A stretch of 64,000 nt of DNA from a bacterium (GTDB lineage Bacteria > UBA8248): contig CBDBBI010000010.1 of NCBI GenBank assembly GCA_965202625.1, positions 1,696,001 to 1,760,000 of the forward strand, written 5' to 3'. The notes under the pieces were generated by a model. The model did no database searches, was not told where the DNA came from, and worked only from the letters and a program-made list of their open reading frames with translations. This document shows, piece by piece, positions 41,996 through 54,521 of the stretch. The position numbers were made by a program, and so were the translations under genes. Numbering within the stretch: position 1 is the first letter of the stretch; each line of letters begins with the position of its first letter.

Positions 41996-44299
41996 TCACG
42001 CCGGCTTTCGCAACAGCCCCATCGCGATTCTATCCGGCGTCAGGGGCAAATCACGAAACCGGACGCCTGTGGCGTCGTAAATCGCGTTGGCGATGGCCGC
42101 AGCCGTGGGCACGTTCACCTGCTCTCCAGCCCCCTTCGCCCCATAAGGACCGCTCGAGTAGGCGTCCTCCACAATGATGGACGCCACCTGGCTGGGCACG
42201 TCCTGCGAGGTCGGAACGAGGTAGCCGTGCATGTCCGGGTTTTGCATGCGGCCCTCGCACTGCACCACCTCCTCCATCATGCAAAAACCAATCCCCATAT
42301 ACACGCCGCCCTCGACCTGCTGCTCCACGCCCATGGGGCTTATCGCCCTGCCCACGTCATGGGCGGCCCATACGCCGCAAACCTCCACCTCTCCCGTCTC
42401 CGGGTCCACGAGCACCTCCGCAACCTGGCTGCCGAACCCGTATACCTCATACGGATCGCCCAGACCCGTTTCCTCGTCGATCCGCGCGGGCGGCGGAATG
42501 CTGTCCGCCGCGCCCAGCTGCTTGAGTTCATCCGCGACGAACGCCCTCGCAACGTCAGGAAGGGTGACGCTGGCTTCCGGATGCGCGCGCGCGCGAACCA
42601 CGCCGCCGCGCAACTCCAGATCCTCCGGTGCCGCCTCCAGCAAAACGCCGCCCAGACGCAGCAACTCCTCCCGTGCCTTGAGGGAAGCGTTATAGACCGC
42701 CTTCCCCCCCTGCATGGTGATGCGGGAGCTCGAACTGGTACCGCCGAACGGATCGATGGCGGTGTCCACGCTCTCCATCAGAAACTCGGAATAGGGGACG
42801 TCCAGCGTTTCAGAGGCGATTTGGCACAGCACCGTCTTGCTCCCCTGGCCGAAATCCACGACGCCGGCGGCGACCTGGATTTTCCCGTTCGCCGTGAGAA
42901 AGACGCGCGCCTCCGCAGGGGAGTAGGCATTGCCCGTGCCATACAGACAACTCGCCACGCCTTGCCCGCGCAAGCGGCCATCCCCCGATCCGCCGCGGCG
43001 ACTGCCCCCCTCTCTCCAGGACGAGGCTCTCTCCACCTCCCGCAGGGTATCGAGAAAACCGACGCTCTCGGGCAAATGCTGGTTCCATGCGGTTCGGGAG
43101 CCGACCCGCAGTCCGTTGATGCGCCTGATCTCCATGGGGTCGAGGCGCAAGGCTCTGGCGAGCGCGTCCATCTGCTGCTCGCCCGCGAAGTGCACCTGGG
43201 GACATCCAGGCCCGCGCATCTGTCCCCCATAGGGGTGGTTCGTGTGCACGCAGTGCACGTCCACTTTCACGTTGGGCACCCGATACGGACCTGCGGCGTG
43301 GTAGGTCGCGCGTTTGAACGCGGGCGGATTGTCCCCCCCGTTCGCCGCGTACGCCCCCTTGTCCAGCCATATTTCCACCTGAAGCGCCACAAGGCGCCCA
43401 TCGCGCGTCGCCCCCGTCTTCGAACGAATGAAGGCGGCGTGGCGCTTTGAGGAGGAGATCAGGCTCTCCTCGCGAGAGTATGCGAGTTTGACGGGCCTGC
43501 CCGCCGCGTGAGCGAGCGCCGCGGCGCGCAGACACACGTCGAGGCTCGCCTCGCTCTTTCCGCCAAAAGCGCCTCCGGTGACCGTCTGAACGAAGCGAAC
43601 CGCGCCCTCGCCCTTCAGCCCCAGCATTCGGGCGACGTTGCGCCTCACCAGAAACGGCTGCTGGGTGGAGCCCCAGACCTGCATTCCGCCGCCGGGGAGC
43701 GGACTCGCGCAAGCGGCCTCCACCTCAAGGTAGAGATGCTCGACGGAAGGCGTCGAGTATTCGTTCTCGACGATCACGTCGGCGCGCGCGAAACCATCCT
43801 CGACGTCTCCCTTTCTTATTCTGGCCTGGTTGAGAACGTTTCCGCCGGGGAATATCTTCTCCGCCCCGTTCTTCATCGCCTCGCGTGGGTCGGAGACGAC
43901 GGGCAAAGGCCGATATTCGACCTTTATCAGCCGCATCGCCTCCTCGGCCGCCTCCAGCGTCTCCGCCGCGATGAGGGCGACCACCTCGCCCATATAGCGC
44001 ACCCTGTCGTAGGCGATGACGGGCATAGCGCGTTCGTGGGGAATGATACGGGGATGGCCCGGCAGGTCGTCACCCGTGAGAACGGCGACGACGCCGGGGA
44101 CGCGCGAGGCCGCGCGGGCGTCGATGGAGCGTATCTCGGCGTGCGCGCATTCGCTGCGAAGCGCCTTGCCTATCAACATTCCCGAAAGGCGAAGGTCGTC
44201 AAGATAGTCGGCCGCACCGGCCGCCTTTTCAGGATCGTCGAGAAAGGGGAGGGACGCGCCGACTACGGCCGCACCGCCCATGTCTTTGGCCTCCGCCAT
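41996..44299 (-). CDS. Xanthine dehydrogenase-family molybdopterin-binding (large) subunit
   Basis: EHLYLE, GGAFGGK, MRGPG.PQ, GQGS.T, SSRIT, GPYGAKGAGE. Confidence 0.9.
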   Translation of the reverse strand: MAEAKDMGGAAVVGASLPFLDDPEKAAGAADYLDDLRLSGMLIGKALRSECAHAEIRSIDARAASRVPGVVAVLTGDDLPGHPRIIPHERAMPVIAYDRVRYMGEVVALIAAETLEAAEEAMRLIKVEYRPLPVVSDPREAMKNGAEKIFPGGNVLNQARIRKGDVEDGFARADVIVENEYSTPSVEHLYLEVEAACASPLPGGGMQVWGSTQQPFLVRRNVARMLGLKGEGAVRFVQTVTGGAFGGKSEASLDVCLRAAALAHAAGRPVKLAYSREESLISSSKRHAAFIRSKTGATRDGRLVALQVEIWLDKGAYAANGGDNPPAFKRATYHAAGPYRVPNVKVDVHCVHTNHPYGGQMRGPGCPQVHFAGEQQMDALARALRLDPMEIRRINGLRVGSRTAWNQHLPESVGFLDTLREVERASSWREGGSRRGGSGDGRLRGQGVASCLYGTGNAYSPAEARVFLTANGKIQVAAGVVDFGQGSKTVLCQIASETLDVPYSEFLMESVDTAIDPFGGTSSSSRITMQGGKAVYNASLKAREELLRLGGVLLEAAPEDLELRGGVVRARAHPEASVTLPDVARAFVADELKQLGAADSIPPPARIDEETGLGDPYEVYGFGSQVAEVLVDPETGEVEVCGVWAAHDVGRAISPMGVEQQVEGGVYMGIGFCMMEEVVQCEGRMQNPDMHGYLVPTSQDVPSQVASIIVEDAYSSGPYGAKGAGEQVNVPTAAAIANAIYDATGVRFRDLPLTPDRIAMGLLRKPA

Positions 44300-44476
44300 G
44301 GAACATCCTCCCCGCATGAACAATACTCGCTAATTTACACGCTCCTCCACCGTTTGTCTATGAAATCGGCGGTGCGGGCCAATCCTTGCGGAGAGTATGC
44401 GTTGCGGGCGAACGCTTGCGAGAGCGTGCGGTGCGCAATCCTTTTGCGAGGGTGTGAGACAAGTCGTGTGGAGAGG

Positions 44477-44556
44477 ATGGAACGCAAGATCGTTCCCATC
44501 GTCGCCGGATTCGGCCTCGCCTCTTGGCCGGACTCGGAGACGCCCGGGCCGCCGAG
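44477..44556 (+). pseudogene. Degenerate copy of the 5' end (signal peptide) of the binding-protein gene at 39093
   Basis: ATGGAACGCAAGATCGTTCCCATCGTCGCCGGATTCGGCCTCGCC...GCCGCCGAG vs ATGAAACGCAAAATTGTTACCATCGTCGCAGGATTCGGCCTCGCC...GCCGCCGAG; 1-nt frameshift; GAGAGG RBS retained. Confidence 0.85.
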
Positions 44557-44975
44557 AGGCGGGCGGCTCAATGAGGAGAGCGGCGAGTGGAATACGCTTT
44601 CAGAACGCGAAATTCTATTCGCGCAAACGAGAAGCATATGAAAATTCGTGTACATTTACGACGCTTATCGAAAGTTTCAAGAATGATTCAGGAGTTATGC
44701 ACTGAACTATGCAAATAAAGACGTCCGCAATTGCTTGTTTTTTTCGGTAAGTTCCAGTCTGAACCGCTCTGTTCCGATTTTCCGCCGCACCCCGATACCC
44801 TCTCCCTCAAGTAGCGCCTCCATTCATTCCATTCCCTGAATTTTGAAACTTTTTCTCCGGGTCGGTGTAAATCTCGGCTTCTTTTTGTAGACGGATAAGC
44901 TTGCATAAAATTGCTCAGAGTTCCAACGCTTTTCCCATCCTACAGTATGAAGCATGTCGTTGCTTATTCCGCCAT

Positions 44976-45359
44976 AAAATATTCTTCAATGACAATATAT
45001 CTCGTGTTCTTATTATGCAGTCTACCAATGGAATATCTAACCGGCGGCTTGCCCTCAGCCAATAGGCAAACGGACTGAACAGAGCGGTGAATCGAAAGCG
45101 GAACGGGGCCAAAATGTCGACAAGTGGATTCCACTCCTTCATCAAGACTTCAACGGCATCGACAATTTCGGAAACTGTATTCTAAATCCGTCCTATTCTT
45201 TAGTTTATACAATAATTCGCCAATTTCCGATCGTCGTGTATTGAATCGTGGGTGTTCACATTCATCAGCTCCAATTTTGATGATGCTCAACGTATGAAGA
45301 ACAAGGGCGAATCCCTCTCTTCATTTTCCTACTATTTTTTGCCGGACGAACTTAGTCAT
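44976..45359 (-). pseudogene. ComF-like phosphoribosyltransferase pseudogene
   Basis: AGGAG RBS; MTKFVRQKIVGK*REGFALVLHTLS...HPRFNTRRSEIGELLYKLK, then shifted frames EIVDAVEVLMKEWNPLVDILAP / VPLS..RSVQSV.LLAE / RLDIPLVDCIIRTRD..SLKNI; truncated before the PRPP-binding motif. Confidence 0.7.
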
Positions 45360-45513
45360 TATGTCTCCTGCGTCGTGACTTTGGTCAAGATACTTCATCA
45401 CTATAATACTTTGTCAAATTTACATAGTTAAGTTTATAATTCTCAAAATTTTCGCTTCTTGATTTATCCTGCATTCCCTGTTCGTCCCGCGCCCACCCGG
45501 AGGAGTCCCGAGG

Positions 45514-46185
45514 ATGGAGGAACGAAAGAATTCAGCACGTGCGCTCTTTCCCGCGTATCCGCAAGTCGTTGAATTATTTACGCAAGAGACGCTCGACCTG
45601 CGCGAGGCGACTCTTCTGAGAAGAAGAGAGGAGAAAGCCTGGGGCTTGTGGTCCATCCAGGATCAGGTGAGTCACGTAGCCTCCCTGCCCTATCGGTGGT
45701 TGCTGGTGCGCTGGGGGGCCGTTCTGTTTGGCGACGACTTGCCGCGCGAGACGAAACTGCTCGACAGATTCGACGATCGCATGATGAAAAGGGAATATTA
45801 TCCAAAAATTCAAGGACTTATCAACGTCATGCGAGATTCGTTCTCACTCGCTTGGGAGGTGCTGGGTGCTGAATCGACCAAATCCATTCGGGACGAGCGC
45901 AACGTTTCCGAGCGCGTATCCGTGGGTATGAGGCGGCCCGGAACCAACGAGGACGTTCGCAAGTGGCGGGAAAACGTAACTCTCAAGGCGCATTCCACCG
46001 GCGTATGGATCGATCCGCATGACGCAGAGCTGTTTCGTTATAATCTAGAATACACGTTTCGCCACATGCTTTGGGAGGCGTATGCCCATCTCAAAACCAT
46101 TCAGATGCACAAAAAAGAGGAAAACATGAAACCCATCGGCAGAATTCCCCAAGATGGGTACATCTCCGTGCTGAAATGGGAGTAA
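45514..46185 (+). CDS. DinB/YfiT-like four-helix protein
   Basis: WSIQDQVSH near the N-terminus, RH..WE...H...I near the C-terminus; GGAGGAG upstream. Confidence 0.6.
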   Translation: MEERKNSARALFPAYPQVVELFTQETLDLREATLLRRREEKAWGLWSIQDQVSHVASLPYRWLLVRWGAVLFGDDLPRETKLLDRFDDRMMKREYYPKIQGLINVMRDSFSLAWEVLGAESTKSIRDERNVSERVSVGMRRPGTNEDVRKWRENVTLKAHSTGVWIDPHDAELFRYNLEYTFRHMLWEAYAHLKTIQMHKKEENMKPIGRIPQDGYISVLKWE

Positions 46186-46253
46186 CTCTAATGATGAACA
46201 ACAATTTGCGAGCACTAAAATCTGCATCCCCTAACCTTGAGGGACGGACAAAC

Positions 46254-46814
46254 ATGGTGGAAAACCCGAACTATCCTTGGCATGAGAGCACCACGCCCGG
46301 TGAGAGGCCGATTGACAAGCCTGAACTTCCAAAAGACGGCTACGAGATCACCATGCTCGCCGAAACAGAGAAGATGGACGACGGACAACTGAAAATCGGT
46401 CGATTCCGACATTTTAAGGTTTTCAGCGATGAACCGCCTCGCATCGGAGGAGAAGATAGATATCCCCAGCCCCTCACCTATATCGCCATGGGGGTTGGCT
46501 TCTGACTGTTGACCCAGATGGGGCGGTACGCCCACATGACGAAAACAACCTTTGAAAAAGCCGCCTGTCGTGTTGAGTTTGATTATTTTCTAAAGGGTTC
46601 TGTACTGAAAGGAGACGTCCATTCGGGGTGCCGAGGGGTTCGGACGCACTTTAAGGTGGAATCCAGCGAACCGGAAGAGAAAATCCTTGCTATCATTCGG
46701 CTGGCGAAACAAGGCTGCTACGCCGAGCAGATGGTGCAAACAGCGGTTCCGCTCACAAGCACCGTCGAATTGAACGGTAAAAGCATTACGTTGACAGGAA
46801 TCACGACAAATTGA
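46254..46814 (+). CDS. OsmC-like protein with in-frame TGA, probable selenoprotein (186 aa, Sec at codon 84)
   Basis: Track ORFs 46071-46505 and 46509-46814 are in the same frame: SDEPPRIGGEDRYPQPLTYIAMGVGF-(TGA)-LLTQMGRYA...AKQGCYAE. The TGA is at the first OsmC Cys position. Confidence 0.8.
46518..46537 (+). promoter_or_regulatory. Candidate bacterial SECIS hairpin
   Basis: ATG-GGGCG-[GTA]-CGCCC-A-CAT; the apical loop starts with G-U and lies 20 nt after the UGA at 46503-46505. Confidence 0.7.
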
Positions 46815-46942
46815 AACCAGCACGCGATTCTACAGGCTAAAACCGAGTGCGACCGATGCGCGTCATCCAACAAACCATGGCACCAGACGCACACAGATAT
46901 GTGCACTGAATATCCTACAAACGCTTTACTCTTTCGATTCTC

Positions 46943-47018
<76 letters not shown>

Positions 47019-47212
47019 ACCATGTAGAGAAACGCCTGATGAGCAAAGCGTATTTCTTATCGGCCAATTTTTCCCTGCAAGGCAATCTTTTCTATATACC
47101 TAAGCAAGAACGGGGAAATTCTAAAACCTCCCATCATGAAGGTCAACGTAGAAACGCCCATCGCTCCCATATCCGACTTGATGCGAGGGAAGCTCTCTCC
47201 TATGGTAAAAGC

Positions 47213-48231
47213 ATGTTGACCCGCTCTTCATTCCCCGTGGGCAAGCTCCCCCCAGACATACTGGAGGTTTTATTCCAAAAGGCAGACCCTCATTCGCGCC
47301 TCATCGTGGGTCCGCAGATTGGGGAAGACACAACCTCATCGACATCGGAGATCGTTATCTAGTCGCCAAATCAGACCCCACTATATTCGTAGGGAGTCAT
47401 ATCGGACGTTACGCCGCTCACGTGAACGATGTCGCTTGTATGGGCGGACACCCCCCCCTGTGGTTCCTGATGACGCTGTTGCTGCCCGATGGACGCACCA
47501 GCGAGGCGATGGTAAACCGGATTTGGAAAGAGGCGCAAGACGCTTGCCCTGAATCTGGGGATCGCCATATGCGGCAGACACACGGAGAGCACGTCGGGGC
47601 TGAAATTCCCGATTCTTTCCAGCCACATGACATGTTGGGGGAAATCGCCAAGGAAAAATTCATTCGGAGCGCGAACGCCCGCGTGGACGACATCATTCTA
47701 CTCACCCGCCCCATACCGTGGAAGGAACGGCGATCTTGACAAACTCTACATACGATTGTTTGAAAAACGTTCTCGACATGGAGATATTAGAGAGCGCGAA
47801 AAGATATCTTGATTCTCCGAGCATCAGCGTAGTGGCGCAAGCGGCTTGCAGCGTCTGAAACACGACGCGCTCACGCCATACATGGACCCGACCGAAGGGG
47901 CCCTCGCCACAGGCACCTATGAGCTGGCCGTAACCCCTAGTCTCGGAGCAACCGTGGAGGAAAGCAAGATTCCCATCTCTTTTGAGAGCGGAAAAATTTG
48001 CGAAGTGTTGGGGCTCGACCCGTTGAGGGTCATCACCTCGGGGGCGCTTCTGTTGACACTTACAGCCAAGGAGAAGGAAATTTTCCGAAAAACGCTAATA
48101 GAAAAGCGAGTGCGATGGGAGTTCACATAGGCAGGTTATGTGCGCCTGAATGCGGGGTGACGATTCAATGCAGAGGAATATCCTCTCCCCTGTAGCACTT
48201 CCACACCGATGAAATCTCAAAAATCATTTAG
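47213..48231 (+). pseudogene. AIR synthase-related (PurM/HypE/ThiL-like) protein pseudogene
   Basis: Fragments in several frames: GKLPPDIL, VGPQIGED, DIGDRYLVAKSDP, VNDVACMGG, DPTEGALAT, LGLDPL...SGALL, DEISKII. Confidence 0.75.
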
Positions 48232-48241
48232 AAAGATAAAG

Positions 48242-48831
48242 ATGAATCGAGCCATGAGGGGCGTGTTGCTCGATTTCGACGGCACGCTCACAAAACCCGC
48301 ATTTGATTGGCCCACTATGAAAAAGGAGATGAAATTACCGGATGAAAACGTATCGATTTTAGACCATCTCGTCAGCCTATCTCCTGAACGCGTACGTGAA
48401 ACATCGAGCATACTAGAAAAATATGAGCGCGAAGCCGCCAACAACGCGGAAGCCAACGAAGGCGCCCATGAACTGATCGCGCGCACCTGCGAATCGAAAA
48501 AATTCCCTTTGCGGTCGTGACAAACAACGCGGAGCGGCAGGTCCTAGAAATGGCGAAAAAAATAGATATAGAGTTCGAGGTTCTGATCACGCGAGATATG
48601 GGATATTAGAAGCCAGACCCGAAACCCCTCCTTGCAGGCGCTGCGGCCATCGGCGTAGCACACCCAGTGAATGTATCGTCATCGGAGACGGGAAATACGA
48701 CGTTGATGGCCGCCAAAGCGGCGGGAATGTTGTCCGTTCATCTGTGCGCATCCCCTTCGACACCCAGTGATTTCACCCTTTCCCATCTACTTGAGGCTCC
48801 CGCGCTTATCAAGCAACTCATTGAAAAGTAA
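48242..48831 (+). pseudogene. HAD-family hydrolase pseudogene
   Basis: Motif I LLDFDGTLT; after a frameshift AVVTNN, GY*KPDP (TAG 48607-48609), IGDGKYD, AKAAGM. Confidence 0.75.
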
Positions 48832-49377
48832 AGATTTGGGGCACGCCTCCTCAGAGACATGCCCCATGATGGAAGGAATTTGCCTAAGTTCAGGCAAACC
48901 TTTTGGCGAGATGTCAGTGCATCAGCATCAGGGGATCCCTCTGCTGATCACCGGAAAGGAAAGGCCCCTATCTCAAGGGACCATTGAAGGCCGATGACGC
49001 TTCACACCCTTATTATATGCACGAAACGTGCCAAAATAGACTCTTTTGCCGCATACAATCCACTAATCTCCTAATCATAAACGTATCAGTAATATACCGC
49101 CCATAACCGGGCGCGAAAACTCCGCTAAGGTGCCTTAGATTTCTGACGTTCACTCGCTTAATTTGACTATTTTTCGGGAATACAACGCCAGAATTTGACA
49201 AAATGTCAATTTTCAGTGGGGAGGGATGAGATGAAAAACGCGCTCCGATAACGACGCCACAAGAAAAAGCCTTTTGACTTTATCGAAAAATCGCGTCTGT
49301 CTTTTGATAGAAATTTACGCATATCTGCGAATAATCCGGTGGCAATCACCTACGCAGACGTTACGGATACTTCCGCA

Positions 49378-50880
49378 TTACCTGAAGCTGGCCACCGTTC
49401 CTTGCGCCGCGTCCAGAAAACTGCCCGGAAACAGGCCGAGCAACAGCGTCGCCACCACCAGTGCCACTAAGGCGAAGAGAAGTGAAGGGGCGTTCGAGAA
49501 GCGCACCGTCTCTTGGTGCTCGCTCCGATTTTCCATGAACATCACCATGATGATGCGCCCATAGTAATACATCGAGACCGCGCTCATAAGAAGGCCGATC
49601 ACAGCGAGCCAGTAATACTCATTCTCCACGGCCGCGGCGAACAAGTAGAGTTTGCCGACGAAACCGGCCGTCGGCGGCATTCCGCCCAGCGAGAGCAGAA
49701 ACACCACGAAGGCCATGCCCGCCCAAGGGTGGGCCTGCCCAACCCCCTTCCAGTCCTCGATGTTGTCTCCCCGATAGCCCTCCCTGCATGCCAAAATTAG
49801 CATACCAAAGGCACCCAAGTTGGTGAACAGGTAGGCGAGCAAATAAAAGGCCACCGCGCTTATCCCTATGGAACTGAACGTCACCTTGCCGTCCAAAACG
49901 CTCGTGGAGACCACAACACCCATCAGAACGTAACCCGCATGACCGATACTCGAATACGCCAGCATTCTTTTGAGGCTCGTCTGGGCGATGGCCGCCACGT
50001 TCCCCCAAACCATTGTGAACGCCGTCAGCGCCCACAGGAGGGCGTTCCACTCCTCGGCCATGGCAGGAAATGCCAGAAAGAAGATGCGCATCAGGGCAGC
50101 CACGGTCGCGAGTTTCACAGCCACGGACATGAAGCCTGTAATCGGAGTCGGTGCACCGGTGTAGGCGTCCGGCAGCCACATATGAAACGGCGCCAGCGCC
50201 AGTTTGAATCCGAAACCCACCACTAAAAAAATGAGGCCAAGAATCATCACCGGACTCTGCGCGATCGCCGCACTCTCGGCGGCGGAAAAAACCTCTGCGA
50301 TTCCATGAATTGAGGTCGTTCCCGTGAGGCCATACGCCAGTGCCATGCCATACAACAAAACGCCAGAAGCGAAAGCGCCCATCAGGAAATACTTGAGTCC
50401 GGCCTCTCGGCTCAACGGATCATGCCGCATGAACGCCACGAGCACGTAAATGCTAATGCTCATCGTCTCAAGTCCCAAATAGATCGTGAGCAAATCGTTT
50501 CCCGACGCCATCACGAGCATACCGAACACGGAAAAGAGCAGCATCGCGTATAATTCACCGTAGTTGATCTTCTCCACCCTGGCGTAGCGAAGCAGCAAGA
50601 GAATAGAGATGGCCGCGCAGACGAGCACGCAAACCTTCACGAAAACGCTCAAATTATCGACCACATAAAAGCCGTTGAACGTCGTCCGCGCGCCCTCCCC
50701 CCATTGTCCGAAAGCGACCAGCATCAGGAGGAGCACCCCCACGAACGCCATGACGCCTACGCGGACCTTGTTCTCAATCGCCACGAACAGATCGAGAATG
50801 AGCACCAGACAGATAAGTATGGCTAGCCCTATCTCGGGCGCCGCCAGGGACAAGGCGATGTCGGGAATCACCACTTCCAT
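49378..50880 (-). CDS. nuoN: NADH-quinone oxidoreductase subunit N (set 2)
   Basis: EAGLKYF, FKLALAPFHMWLPDAY.GAP, KRMLAYSSI.HAGY. Confidence 0.95.
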   Translation of the reverse strand: MEVVIPDIALSLAAPEIGLAILICLVLILDLFVAIENKVRVGVMAFVGVLLLMLVAFGQWGEGARTTFNGFYVVDNLSVFVKVCVLVCAAISILLLLRYARVEKINYGELYAMLLFSVFGMLVMASGNDLLTIYLGLETMSISIYVLVAFMRHDPLSREAGLKYFLMGAFASGVLLYGMALAYGLTGTTSIHGIAEVFSAAESAAIAQSPVMILGLIFLVVGFGFKLALAPFHMWLPDAYTGAPTPITGFMSVAVKLATVAALMRIFFLAFPAMAEEWNALLWALTAFTMVWGNVAAIAQTSLKRMLAYSSIGHAGYVLMGVVVSTSVLDGKVTFSSIGISAVAFYLLAYLFTNLGAFGMLILACREGYRGDNIEDWKGVGQAHPWAGMAFVVFLLSLGGMPPTAGFVGKLYLFAAAVENEYYWLAVIGLLMSAVSMYYYGRIIMVMFMENRSEHQETVRFSNAPSLLFALVALVVATLLLGLFPGSFLDAAQGTVASFR

Positions 50881-50914
50881 GAGAAAGACTCCATCAAATC
50901 AGGCGCACCGCATT

Positions 50915-52468
50915 TTATCTTCTATCCAGCCTCGCCATTTTTTCGGGCGCGGGAGTTTTTTGCGGGGTCTCCGCCACGTTCACCATTTTCACCACCTTCT
51001 TCACGCTCGCCTCCATGCGCCCCAGGAATGGCTTGGGGTACAGGCCAATCCAGAACATCAAGAAGATCAACGGCAGAAGATAAAGAACTTCTCGCCCGTT
51101 GCAATCCGTGAGTTTCTCGTTCTCGGGATTGTCCAGCCTTCCAAAGAAAACCCGCTGAAAGAGCCAGAGCATATACGCCGCCCCCAGAACGATGCCCACC
51201 ACGGCGAAGGCGGCATAGACGTAGCTTTTCTTGAACGCACCGATAAGGATGAGAAACTCGCCCACAAATCCGTTCAGTCCCGGAAGTCCAATACTGCTCA
51301 ACATCGTGATGGCGAACAACACCGTATACACCGGCACGACTTTAGAGAGGCCGCCATACTCCGAGATGAGGCGGGTATGGCGTCGCTCGTACACGACGCC
51401 CACCAGAAGGAACAAGGCACCCGTGCTGATTCCGTGGTTGATCATCTGCAGCTGCCCGCCGAGCACGCCCTGCTCGTTCAGGGCAAAAACGCCGAGCATA
51501 ACGAAACCTAGGTGGCTCACGGAAGAATAGGCCACCAGCTTCTTAATGTCGGTTTGCGCCATCGCCACCAAGGCACCGTAAATGATGCCGATAATGGAGA
51601 GAAGCATCATGAAGGGCACGAAAACCTGGCTCGCCTGGGGCAACAGCGGCAGGGCGAAGCGGACGAAGCCGTAGGTTCCCATTTTCAGAAGGATGCCGGC
51701 CAGAATCACGCTTCCCGCCGTGGGTGCCTCCACGTGCGCGTCGGGCAGCCAAGTGTGGAAGGGAAACATGGGGACCTTAATGGCAAACCCGATGAAGAAC
51801 GCCAAGAATATCCATACCTGGAGCGAAAGCGGTATCTTCGGGCCCACAGCGTAGAGCTCCACCAGATCGAAAGTAAGGCTGCCAGTGCCCATTTTGAAAT
51901 TAGCGAAGTAAAGCGCGAGTATCCCCAGCAACATGAGCACGCTGCCGAACAACGTATAGAGGAAAAACTTGATCGCTGCGTAGAGTTTTCTCGGGCCGCC
52001 CCACACCCCGATAAGAAAATACATCGGCACCAAGGTGATCTCGAAAAAGACGTAGAACAGGAAAATGTCGAGGGCGATGAACGTCCCTAACATGCCGGTC
52101 GCCAGCAGCAGTAGGCAGACGTAATACTCTTTCTCGCGCTCGGCGATGGCGGTGAATGAGCACACGATACCGACTATCATGGTGAGCGTCGTGAGCAGGA
52201 CGAGTAGCACGCTGATTCCGTCGATGCCGACGAAATAGCTCACGCCGATAGTAGGTATCCAGCTCGCCTTTTCCACGAACTGAAAGCCGGCCTCGGTGGA
52301 ATCAAAGTGGGTCCATAGAGGAAGTGAAATCAGGAAATCTAGGACTGCCACCGCCGTGGCGAAACCCTTAATGGCTTTCGTCTGCTCTTTCTTCATGAAG
52401 AGCATGATGATCACCGCGCCCAACGCAGGCAAAAAGGTGATCAGCGTGAGAAGCGGCACATTGCTCAT
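50915..52468 (-). CDS. nuoM: NADH-quinone oxidoreductase subunit M (set 2)
   Basis: KVPMFPFHTWLPDAHVEAPT, LLKMGTYG, AYSSVSH. Confidence 0.95.
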   Translation of the reverse strand: MSNVPLLTLITFLPALGAVIIMLFMKKEQTKAIKGFATAVAVLDFLISLPLWTHFDSTEAGFQFVEKASWIPTIGVSYFVGIDGISVLLVLLTTLTMIVGIVCSFTAIAEREKEYYVCLLLLATGMLGTFIALDIFLFYVFFEITLVPMYFLIGVWGGPRKLYAAIKFFLYTLFGSVLMLLGILALYFANFKMGTGSLTFDLVELYAVGPKIPLSLQVWIFLAFFIGFAIKVPMFPFHTWLPDAHVEAPTAGSVILAGILLKMGTYGFVRFALPLLPQASQVFVPFMMLLSIIGIIYGALVAMAQTDIKKLVAYSSVSHLGFVMLGVFALNEQGVLGGQLQMINHGISTGALFLLVGVVYERRHTRLISEYGGLSKVVPVYTVLFAITMLSSIGLPGLNGFVGEFLILIGAFKKSYVYAAFAVVGIVLGAAYMLWLFQRVFFGRLDNPENEKLTDCNGREVLYLLPLIFLMFWIGLYPKPFLGRMEASVKKVVKMVNVAETPQKTPAPEKMARLDRR

Positions 52469-52490
52469 AATTCCTCCAAAACCTCAACCC

Positions 52491-54521
52491 TTAACGGAGA
52501 AGGTAGGCGCTCAGCATCACGAAGACGCCTAAAAGCATCACGAAAAGATAATTCTGCACCATTCCGGATTGCAGATATTTGAACACTTGGGAGAAAAACC
52601 GAATGAAGCTCGCCGTCCCGTTCACCGCCCCATCTACCGTGCGCAAGTCGAAAATTCCGGAAAGCCGGCTCATGACAACTGTGATGATCGAACTGCCGTT
52701 CACCGCCCCATCCACCACCTTAGTGTCGAACGCCCAAAGGGCGCGCATAAGCCTGTAAGTGGGCTCCACGAGGCAGAACTGGTAGATTTCGTCAATGTAA
52801 TATTTGTTCAGGAGCAAATAATACAGTGTCGGAAAACGCGTATACAGGCGATTCGCCGATTCGGGGTCCCGCACATACATATTCCATGCCAGAGCGATGC
52901 CGCCCAGGGCGATGAAGATAGCCAGAACGATGAGCAGTATCGCCTCCGGTCCGCCATGCCCACCGCCATCGGCAGCGACTCGCATCAGTCGCGCGCCCTC
53001 GTCCATGGCGTGGCCGCCAGACGGCATCTTTGCCAAAGACGGCGCGAGAAAACGATGTATCCAGCCGCCCTCCGGTGGAAAGCCGGGAATCGCACCGCCC
53101 ACCACGCTCAGCCCCGCCAGAATGATGAGCGGAACCGTCATAGTGGTGGGCGATTCGTGAATGTGCGCGCGCGCATGATGGTCAACGCGCATCTCACCGT
53201 GAAACGTCATGAAGATGAGCCGGAACATATAGAAAGCCGTCATGAACGCAGCGATGCAACCCATCAACCAGACCGTGTAGTGCCCCGTGAAAAAGGCGTT
53301 CGCCAGAATCTCGTCCTTGCTCCAGAAGCCAGCGAGCGGCGGCACTCCGGCGATGGCGATCGCACCGATTAGAAACGTCCAGTAGGTCACAGGCATTTTC
53401 TCTTTGAGGCCACCCATGTAGCGCATGTCCTGTTGCTGGTCTTCCGGAGCGTGGTGAAGCGCGTGAATCACGCTGCCGCTGCCAAGAAAGAGGAGTCCTT
53501 TGAAGAAGGCATGGGTCATCAGATGAAAGATGGCGGCGGCGAAGGCACCCACGCCCAGGGCCATAAACATGAAACCCAGCTGGCTCACCGTGCTATAGGC
53601 GAGCACACGCTTGATGTCGTTTTGCGCTAACCCAATGGTCGCGGCGAAAAGCCCTGTGACCGCGCCGACGATGGCGATGACCTCAAGCGCGCCCGGGCCC
53701 ATGACGTAGATGGGACTCGTTCGGGCAACCATGTACACACCCGCCGTGACCATGGTGGCGGCGTGAATCAGCGCGCTCACGGGGGTGGGGCCCTCCATGG
53801 CGTCCGGCAGCCAGACGTAGAGCGGAACCTGCGCGCTTTTGCCCGTGGCACCGACGAACAGCAGAAGGCCGATGGCCGTGGCCGCCGCCGCGCTCAGACC
53901 AGGGGCCGCCTCGAACGCCTCCACATAGTTGAGGCTGCCGGTCAGCGTCCAAATCAGAAACATACCCAGGAGAAAACCGGCGTCGCCGATTCGGTTAACG
54001 ATGAACGCTTTTTTGCCGGCGTCGGAGGCGGAGCGCTTCTCGAACCAAAAGCCGATGAGCAGATAGCTGCAAAGGCCCACGCCCTCCCAGCCCACGAACA
54101 TGACGAGATAGTTGTCCCCGAGCACCAACAAAAACATGGAGAGCATGAAAAGGTTGAGATAGGCGAAGAAGCGCGGGTAGCCTGGATCTCCGCGCATATA
54201 ACCCACAGCATAGACGTGCACCAGAAATCCCACGCCCGCCACCACCAACAGCATGACGGTGCTCAACGGATCGATCAGGAAACTCATCGACACGCTAAGG
54301 CTGCCGGCCTCTACCCACTTCCACAGCACCACGGTATGGCTGCTACCGCCCTCCGCCACGAAAATCATCTCGAAGGCGACGCTCAGCACGACGAGAAGCG
54401 ACAGGCCCGCCATGAAGGACGCGAAAGAGCCCGCCCTCTCGCCCACGCGCTCTCCGAACAATCCATTGACCAGTGCCCCGATCACCGGAAAAACAGGAAT
54501 AAGCCATGCCATTTCGATCAT
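52491..54521 (-). CDS. nuoL: NADH-quinone oxidoreductase subunit L (set 2)
   Basis: GKSAQVPLYVWLPDAMEGPTPVSALIHAATMV, HAFFK. Confidence 0.95.
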   Translation of the reverse strand: MIEMAWLIPVFPVIGALVNGLFGERVGERAGSFASFMAGLSLLVVLSVAFEMIFVAEGGSSHTVVLWKWVEAGSLSVSMSFLIDPLSTVMLLVVAGVGFLVHVYAVGYMRGDPGYPRFFAYLNLFMLSMFLLVLGDNYLVMFVGWEGVGLCSYLLIGFWFEKRSASDAGKKAFIVNRIGDAGFLLGMFLIWTLTGSLNYVEAFEAAPGLSAAAATAIGLLLFVGATGKSAQVPLYVWLPDAMEGPTPVSALIHAATMVTAGVYMVARTSPIYVMGPGALEVIAIVGAVTGLFAATIGLAQNDIKRVLAYSTVSQLGFMFMALGVGAFAAAIFHLMTHAFFKGLLFLGSGSVIHALHHAPEDQQQDMRYMGGLKEKMPVTYWTFLIGAIAIAGVPPLAGFWSKDEILANAFFTGHYTVWLMGCIAAFMTAFYMFRLIFMTFHGEMRVDHHARAHIHESPTTMTVPLIILAGLSVVGGAIPGFPPEGGWIHRFLAPSLAKMPSGGHAMDEGARLMRVAADGGGHGGPEAILLIVLAIFIALGGIALAWNMYVRDPESANRLYTRFPTLYYLLLNKYYIDEIYQFCLVEPTYRLMRALWAFDTKVVDGAVNGSSIITVVMSRLSGIFDLRTVDGAVNGTASFIRFFSQVFKYLQSGMVQNYLFVMLLGVFVMLSAYLLR

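Follow-up and report, generated by a model that had tools for sequence, protein, structure and literature searches.

An OsmC-like gene whose internal UGA is very probably decoded as selenocysteine in a UBA8248 bacterium

Does an in-frame TGA in the middle of an otherwise open OsmC-like gene end that gene, mark its decay, or encode selenocysteine (Sec)? The question is raised by a locus in a 64,000-nucleotide (nt) stretch of DNA from a bacterium of the GTDB lineage UBA8248 (assembly GCA_965202625.1, contig CBDBBI010000010.1, positions 1,696,001 to 1,760,000). We refer to this whole stretch as the window and give coordinates within it. A sequence-only reading of the window had proposed that two neighbouring open reading frames (ORFs) are the halves of one hidden selenoprotein gene. 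From the comparative evidence presented below, we consider it very probable that the locus is an intact gene for a 186-residue selenoprotein of the OsmC superfamily (NCBIfam family NF041052), with its internal UGA decoded as Sec.

The reading frame and its internal TGA

According to the ORF list and the translation, a single plus-strand frame runs from 46254 to 46814 and is broken solely by the TGA at 46503-46505, which lies in the context IAMGVGF-TGA-LLTQMGRYAHM. Mechanical ORF calling yields two ORFs, 46071-46505 and 46509-46814, and the translation confirms the earlier proposal that these are one frame split by the TGA. The start Met is kept in 23 of 23 orthologs, and the residues preceding it are variable. 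Read through, the codon would place Sec at residue 84, and the tryptic peptide spanning this residue begins YPQPLTYIAMGVGF-U-LLTQMGR. The second Cys that the sequence-only reading had recognised in QGCYAE is indeed present, as Cys155. For searches, the read-through protein (P0001) was written with C in place of U. It scored 164.2 bits against NF041052, OsmC_like_Se (cut-off 95, E 1.7e-48, profile positions 13-144 of 144), which is far stronger than its score against Pfam OsmC (PF02566; 44.9 bits, gathering cut-off 27.5). A six-frame search of the genome with NF041052 gave 155.9 bits for the window gene, with '1 TGA' reported within the match.

To relate the TGA to the rest of the family, relatives were searched in 41 genomes (the source genome and 40 relatives) at the NF041052 cut-off. 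Matches above the cut-off occurred in 31 of the 41 genomes, and all 100 of those listed carry exactly one TGA. Family loci were taken from 92 of these 100 matches, and in every one (92/92) the TGA occupies the aligned site and the frame is open before and after it. Below the cut-off, 48 of the 50 matches listed had no stop, one had a TAG and one a TGA; 58 more matches were found beyond these 50. In public genome contigs, 55 loci with 58 copies were found and the TGA is present in 58/58; three of these loci (L133, L148 and L149) hold two copies each, in tandem within ~3.5 kb, and the record titles include Tectomicrobia, SAR202 and Dehalococcoidia.

The source genome itself contains three NF041052 paralogs (C10:1742503, which is the window gene, 2332705 and 2778153), and all three carry a single TGA, at the same column and in the context GF-TGA-LLTQ. 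A fourth OsmC protein of the source genome is more distant, of the Cys type, and below the NF041052 cut-off. Relatives carry 3 to 6 Sec-OsmC paralogs per genome among the matches listed. The genes flanking the other two paralogs of the source genome are unlike those flanking the window paralog.

Cys forms of the protein occupy the same column. Six metagenomic proteins (P0002-P0007), 44-55% identical in BLASTP, read GFCLLTQ at this site, and a family profile search aligned the TGA column with Cys in all five matched PDB entries of the OsmC family (3cje, 2opl, 9wo1, 1vla and 2onf). Whether homologs have Cys or a conserved TGA at this position had been put forward as a check; both occur. Judged from these alignments, the internal TGA is an ancestral codon and not a chance lesion.

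This bears directly on the reading of the locus as a pseudogene, in which an OsmC-like gene was killed by a nonsense change of a Cys codon (TGC or TGT) to TGA within a decaying stretch. The surroundings lend this some credit, as several frame changes and one nonsense codon disrupt two genes just downstream, one AIR-synthase-like and one for an HAD hydrolase, and the G+C content falls to about 0.52 across 44-50 kb. A lesion private to this genome would not, however, be shared by 23/23 orthologs, 92/92 family loci and all three paralogs of the source genome. Nor does the gene carry a second lesion: its start codon is intact, as is the candidate hairpin that follows the TGA.

The substitution pattern agrees with this. 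We compared the window copy with 22 orthologs of 77-94% protein identity (253 pairs), all of which, like the window copy, carry the TGA (23/23). Over the 83 codons before the TGA, the nonsynonymous rate (dN) was 0.036 and the synonymous rate (dS) 0.942, giving a dN/dS of 0.038; over the 92 codons after it, dN was 0.058 and dS 0.895, giving 0.064. Selection downstream of the TGA, where a relaxed dN/dS had been named as grounds for refuting the selenoprotein reading, is therefore not relaxed. The window copy has three private substitutions at otherwise invariant sites (S4N, E55K and L89M), all conservative, and the other orthologs have 0-11. These rates indicate strong purifying selection on both halves, with no sign of decay in the window gene, and we regard the pseudogene reading as extremely unlikely.

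Selenocysteine machinery and the hairpin downstream of the UGA

The source genome contains the components for Sec decoding on which the sequence-only reading depended, namely selA, selB, selC and selD. SelA was found with 495 bits, and SelB with 361 bits, above its cut-off, ~1 kb from selA on the same strand. The tRNA-Sec scored 75.8 bits (gathering score 47) and was called by ARAGORN as tRNA-SeC with the anticodon tca. SelD scored 333 bits, above its cut-off, at G000:C10:1611050-1612009 on the minus strand, outside the window; its match includes one in-frame TGA, and SelD is probably itself a selenoprotein in this genome.

At the same time, TGA is the commonest ordinary stop of the source genome, ending 1133 of 2227 (51%) open frames of at least 300 codons. 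This argues against a general reassignment of TGA and for recoding that is specific to the site. A genome-wide reading of TGA as Trp or Gly (NCBI tables 4 or 25) could appeal to the public homolog P0008, which is deposited with W at the TGA site. Besides the stop usage, it is contradicted by the TGA column, which aligns with Cys and not with Trp or Gly, and by the presence of tRNA-Sec, SelA, SelB and SelD, so that we assign it a negligible probability.

Bacterial Sec insertion sequence (SECIS) elements of the Escherichia coli fdhF type are stem-loops that form within the coding region immediately 3' of the UGA and carry a G in their apical loop. A hairpin of this type had been noticed after the TGA of the window gene, with a G-first loop 20 nt downstream. 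In the predicted structure, the core helix pairs 46520-46525 with 46529-46534 and closes an apical GUA loop (46526-46528), whose G at 46526 is separated from the UGA by 20 nt. The lower stem of the window copy pairs 46518-46520 with 46535-46537 and leaves A46534 bulged. This arrangement goes with L89M (ATG), a change unique to the window copy, by which the usual pair U18-A32 (alignment columns) gives way to G18-C33, U17-A34 and A16-U35, with A32 bulged. The hairpin segment also encodes the conserved peptide (L/M)xRYAHM.

Support for the hairpin comes from a gapless alignment of 51 nt from the TGA, comprising the 73 distinct sequences among the 92 Sec-form loci. RNAalifold placed a helix at columns 18-22/28-32. 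For the helix 18-23/27-32, 92.0% of cells are standard pairs, compared to 73.7 +/- 1.3% in shuffled alignments, and slid controls, in which the partner was moved by 1-3 columns, paired in 19-60% of cells. Five of the six helix pairs have changed on both sides in a compensatory manner. Pair 20-30, for example, is C-G in 35 sequences, G-C in 19, A-U in 17 and G-U in 2, and pair 19-31 is G-C in 43 sequences, A-U in 18 and U-A in 1. The covariation score was 0.441 versus 0.132 after shuffling, and none of 500 shuffles (0/500) attained 0.441. The loop G (column 24) is invariant in 73/73 sequences. Furthermore, several of the helix changes combine a second codon position in the 5' arm with a synonymous third position in the 3' arm, and the synonymous rate is 0.34 in the 12 codons after the UGA compared to about 0.95 elsewhere. 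Both observations point to a constraint at the RNA level. The hairpin noticed in the single sequence is thus supported by structure and covariation across the 73 sequences.

In comparison with the E. coli fdhF-type SECIS, the hairpin has in common the position of the stem-loop in the coding sequence right after the UGA and an apical loop in which a G, with U next to it on the 3' side, lies ~20 nt past the UGA. It differs in its much shorter helix of 6-8 pairs and its 3-nt GUA loop, and it shows neither sequence similarity nor an Rfam match. During translation, SelB with Sec-tRNA(Sec) would recognise the hairpin, 13-15 nt past the UGA, as the ribosome arrives, and Sec would be inserted at 46503-46505.

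The hairpin also bears on the reading of the UGA as a real stop. The locus would then encode an 83-residue N-terminal fragment, with or without a separate 101-residue C-terminal protein starting at TTG 46509. Mechanical ORF calling gives just these two parts, and the 102-residue public entry P0009 represents the C-terminal half called alone. A single-domain fold split at its catalytic Cys column, though, would give no piece with a complete OsmC domain, the Cys-form homologs are single polypeptides, and both the complete Sec machinery and the covarying hairpin would be left without a role. We consider this reading very unlikely; the C-terminal half P0009 and the W entry P0008 are what miscalling would produce. 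In sum, the pseudogene, the split gene and the general reassignment of TGA were all rejected, on the basis of TGA conservation, Cys-form polypeptides and stop usage.

Independent reads reproduce the sequence. Logan contigs from two DNA runs of one other study bridge the TGA without any difference (X4 record 3, 46037-46667; X5 record 10, 46075-46630), as do contigs from two metatranscriptome-library runs of another study (X6 record 19, 46389-46627; X8 record 26, 46368-46602). The X6 contigs span 46202-46998 almost continuously. The sequence is therefore real and present in RNA libraries.

Some observations nevertheless weigh against a selenoprotein gene at this locus. By itself, the hairpin is no better than chance: the single-sequence fold of 46503-46545 has a free energy of -11.3 kcal/mol (z = -1.26), which was equalled in 19 of 200 shuffles. 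As this fold is indistinguishable from shuffles, the case rests on the comparative data. At E <= 10, Rfam gave no SECIS family in 46300-46900, the sole match being a chance one to mir-996 on the opposite strand. The covariation shuffles ignore the relatedness of the sequences, and since the helix is part of a conserved coding sequence, pairing is partly coupled to amino-acid conservation; indeed, the hairpin region also encodes LLTQxxRYAxM, which is common to the Cys-form proteins. The two genes just downstream are decayed in the source genome. The RNA-library contigs may include DNA carry-over, are no proof of transcription, and cannot show translation. Finally, Sec insertion at this UGA is something we infer from sequence comparison.

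Fold, active site and proposed function

An AlphaFold2 model of the protein, built with a 26-sequence alignment, had a mean predicted local distance difference test score (pLDDT) of 90.7 and a predicted template modelling score (pTM) of 0.83. The best PDB match in Foldseek was 2onf (E 4.5e-9, template modelling score on target 0.85). Altogether, 64 PDB chains matched at E <= 0.001, and among the matches listed all were OsmC-family proteins, Ohr proteins, or untitled hypothetical or structural-genomics entries. The predicted fold is that of OsmC/Ohr. In the model, U84 is located in a long helix (73-95), and Cys155 at the junction of the helices 141-154 and 156-164. Sec84 and Cys155 are invariant in 26/26 aligned sequences, as are D59, E60, G66, P71, P73, Y76, G82, L86, G115, S116 and V117, and the second Cys of 3cje and 2onf falls in the Cys155 column.

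Compared to the two-Cys reductases of the Ohr/OsmC group (PF02566; among others 1vla, 6mjn, 1n2f, 4xx2 and 6ebg), the fold matches with a Foldseek probability of 1.00 and template modelling scores on target of up to 0.85. In both, the long first helix carries a redox residue and a later helix has a second Cys at its start; corresponding roles may be assigned to these residues by analogy. The window protein differs in having Sec in place of the first Cys, in its low identity of 8-22%, and in an extra N-terminal segment of ~45 residues with the conserved sequence PGERxIDKPELP. The closest solved relative by sequence is 3cje, an OsmC-like protein of Jannaschia sp. (profile E 9.5e-19), with which it shares the motifs GxxGC-V/L-x-TQ and AK(K/Q)GCF/Y. 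By contrast, 3cje carries Cys where the window protein has Sec, and the N-terminal extension is missing from it; no function is given in the entry.

The geometry is compatible with the following catalytic cycle. The Sec84 selenolate, as the peroxidatic or redox-active residue, would attack a hydroperoxide or another oxidant, and the resulting selenenic acid would be resolved by Cys155 to give a Sec84-Cys155 selenenylsulfide. An external dithiol or thiol reductant would then recycle the selenenylsulfide, and the outcome would be an enzyme that detoxifies organic hydroperoxides or acts in thiol-redox detoxification. The roles of Sec84 and Cys155, the substrate and the reductant are all proposed here by analogy.

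We favour a peroxidase as the most likely function, given the resemblance of the protein to its family. The active site departs from the canonical enzymes in one respect, which speaks against this assignment. In Ohr proteins, an activating Arg and Glu surround the peroxidatic Cys. In the window protein, Leu74 and Thr75 occupy the Glu positions of 1vla and 2onf, 9-10 residues before the Cys, which suggests that canonical Ohr/OsmC catalysis may not apply. No invariant Arg was seen in the N-terminal strands of the 26-sequence alignment, and R91 is kept in most, but not all, family members. The replaced Glu and the fact that the closest solved relatives have no assigned activity weaken the peroxidase reading.

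The same observations open a second possibility, namely that the gene encodes a true selenoprotein that is not a hydroperoxide reductase. It could be a Sec/Cys redox or carrier protein of a YhfA/COG1765-like branch of the OsmC superfamily, with protein disulfides, lipoyl groups, or the handling of sulfur or selenium as examples of what it might act on. In addition to the Leu and Thr at the Glu positions, this is suggested by 3cje and 2opl, both structural-genomics entries with no stated activity, and by the conserved upstream neighbour, which may be DinB-like and would then belong to a superfamily that includes thiol transferases. On the other hand, the protein matches OsmC/Ohr peroxidases in fold and in two-Cys geometry, and Sec at the peroxidatic position is typical of peroxide-reducing selenoenzymes. 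We therefore hold a non-peroxidase function to be possible but not probable, and retain the peroxidase as our working assignment.

Family context and genomic neighbourhood

The family to which the gene belongs has been described before. An 'OsmC-like protein' selenoprotein family with the motif UxxT and the assignment COG1765 appears in the tables and figure legends of the 2005 study of the Sargasso Sea metagenome (Zhang, Fomenko and Gladyshev; PMC1088965, Tables 1-3), and U84-L85-L86-T87 of the window protein fits the UxxT given in Table 3 of that paper. An OsmC-like protein with UxxT is listed again in a table of a 2026 review (PMC13188914). The sequence-only reading was thus right that such proteins had been reported from metagenomes. 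Its view of them as poorly characterised did not hold in the sense of obscurity: the family has been listed since 2005 (PMC1088965, in the parts cited above), and the curated model NF041052 means that the NCBI annotation rules hold a model for it. Our literature search found no paper on the biochemistry of OsmC-like selenoproteins or on the paralog expansion of the family.

With the known OsmC-like selenoproteins (NF041052 and the 2005 family), the window gene shares the UxxT motif with Sec as its first residue, a hairpin that follows the UGA immediately and has a G in its apical loop, and Cys homologs. No essential difference was noted, the window gene being one of three Sec paralogs in its genome; it is an ordinary representative of a family that was already on record. 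It alters no concept of Sec decoding or OsmC function, and adds one further family member for which the comparative support is unusually clean. Only two points are mildly new: genomes of this lineage hold 3-6 Sec paralogs each, and the DinB-like neighbour keeps a fixed place. For annotation, the locus illustrates that gene callers treating every TGA as a stop cut the gene into two meaningless ORFs, and the public fragment P0009 and the W read-through P0008 look like miscalls of the same type.

The lineage is rich in selenoproteins. Parts of the BSepDB paper (PMC13326102) place organisms labelled Nitrospinota, GTDB UBA8248, among the ten bacteria richest in selenoprotein genes, with 48-54 such genes, and one of these organisms shares its name with the public locus L133. 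Public records of related genomes bear titles such as Nitrospinota and Nitrospinaceae. Across the window, 142 TGA read-through candidates were listed, on which we base no claim of further selenoprotein genes.

The features of the locus are compiled in Table 1.

Table 1 Positions of the predicted selenoprotein gene, its elements and the neighbouring features in the window
Feature	Position	Strand	Remarks
OsmC-like gene, predicted selenoprotein	46254..46814	+	ATG 46254; 186 codons; terminal TGA stop 46812-46814
UGA, putatively read as selenocysteine U84	46503..46505	+	First residue of the UxxT motif (U-L-L-T)
SECIS-type hairpin within the coding sequence	46518..46537	+	AUG-GGGCG-[GUA]-CGCCC-A-CAU; minimum free energy structure and covariation
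Cys155 codon (AKQGCYAE)	46716..46718	+	Presumed resolving cysteine
223-residue ORF	45514-46185	+	Directly upstream of the selenoprotein gene; possible operon partner
tRNA-Phe(gaa)	46943-47018	-	~130 nt past the selenoprotein stop; same place in 17/19 orthologous loci
AIR-synthase-superfamily pseudogene	~47058-48228	+	Match spread over all three plus-strand frames
HAD-IA hydrolase pseudogene	48164-48828	+	Two frames, 48164-48511 and 48481-48828

The 223-residue ORF is kept upstream of the gene in 19/19 orthologous loci, with ~70-73% identity in the best listed alignments. It had no Pfam match at E <= 10 and no NCBIfam match at E <= 0.1. An Atlas feature search put it near DinB-like clusters (score 0.96, DinB_2 on 35% of members), and we treat its possible DinB-like nature as a lead, not a finding. 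One could imagine that this protein and Sec-OsmC form a dedicated two-component module for thiol/selenol detoxification, in which the partner would deliver or recycle reductant and the paralog expansion would replace classical peroxide defences, an idea that we rate as unlikely. No RNA-library contig covered 45421-46146, where the DinB-like gene lies, or the pseudogenes (47115-48900); missing cover is no evidence of silence. Upstream of this ORF, a promoter-like site at 45411-45440 matches 11 of 12 consensus positions, which is a consensus match only, and ~850 nt at 44650-45500 contain no ORF of at least 90 residues and no Rfam match.

A scan of the whole window against Rfam at gathering scores returned the tRNA-Phe alone. 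Many contigs of other organisms pile up on this tRNA and, as conserved tRNAs lead one to expect, differ from the window on either side of it.

Beyond the tRNA lie the two decayed genes. The AIR-synthase-like gene is intact in 17/19 orthologous loci, and in relatives it forms an open frame of ~405 codons followed by the HAD-IA hydrolase gene. The best partial NCBIfam matches of the AIR-synthase-like protein are HypE, SelD and ThiL, all far below their cut-offs. At a position that is Trp in relatives, the HAD-IA hydrolase is interrupted by an in-frame stop (GY*KPDP compared to GYWKPDP). Most of the pseudogene stretch is reproduced gap-free by independent DNA contigs, which means that the lesions did not arise in the assembly of the source record. 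Behind 47450, one X5 contig carries an extra C that is absent from an X4 contig, which indicates that at least one frameshift of the AIR-synthase-like gene is polymorphic in nature. The caution voiced earlier about nearby pseudogenes with nonsense mutations was thus justified as an observation. Since both pseudogenes lie beyond the tRNA-Phe and the selenoprotein gene is untouched, it has no bearing on the window gene.

In the interval 44001-50000 the G+C content is about 0.52, compared to 0.60-0.67 over most of the window. Both pseudogenes and the tRNA fall within this interval, together with the selenoprotein gene and its DinB-like neighbour. On its upstream side, a gene of the molybdopterin-binding aldehyde oxidase/xanthine dehydrogenase family occupies 41996-44323 on the minus strand. 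On its downstream side, three consecutive genes for NADH:quinone oxidoreductase/Mrp antiporter membrane subunits (Proton_antipo_M) lie at 49378-54521, also on the minus strand; the genes on both sides are ordinary context.

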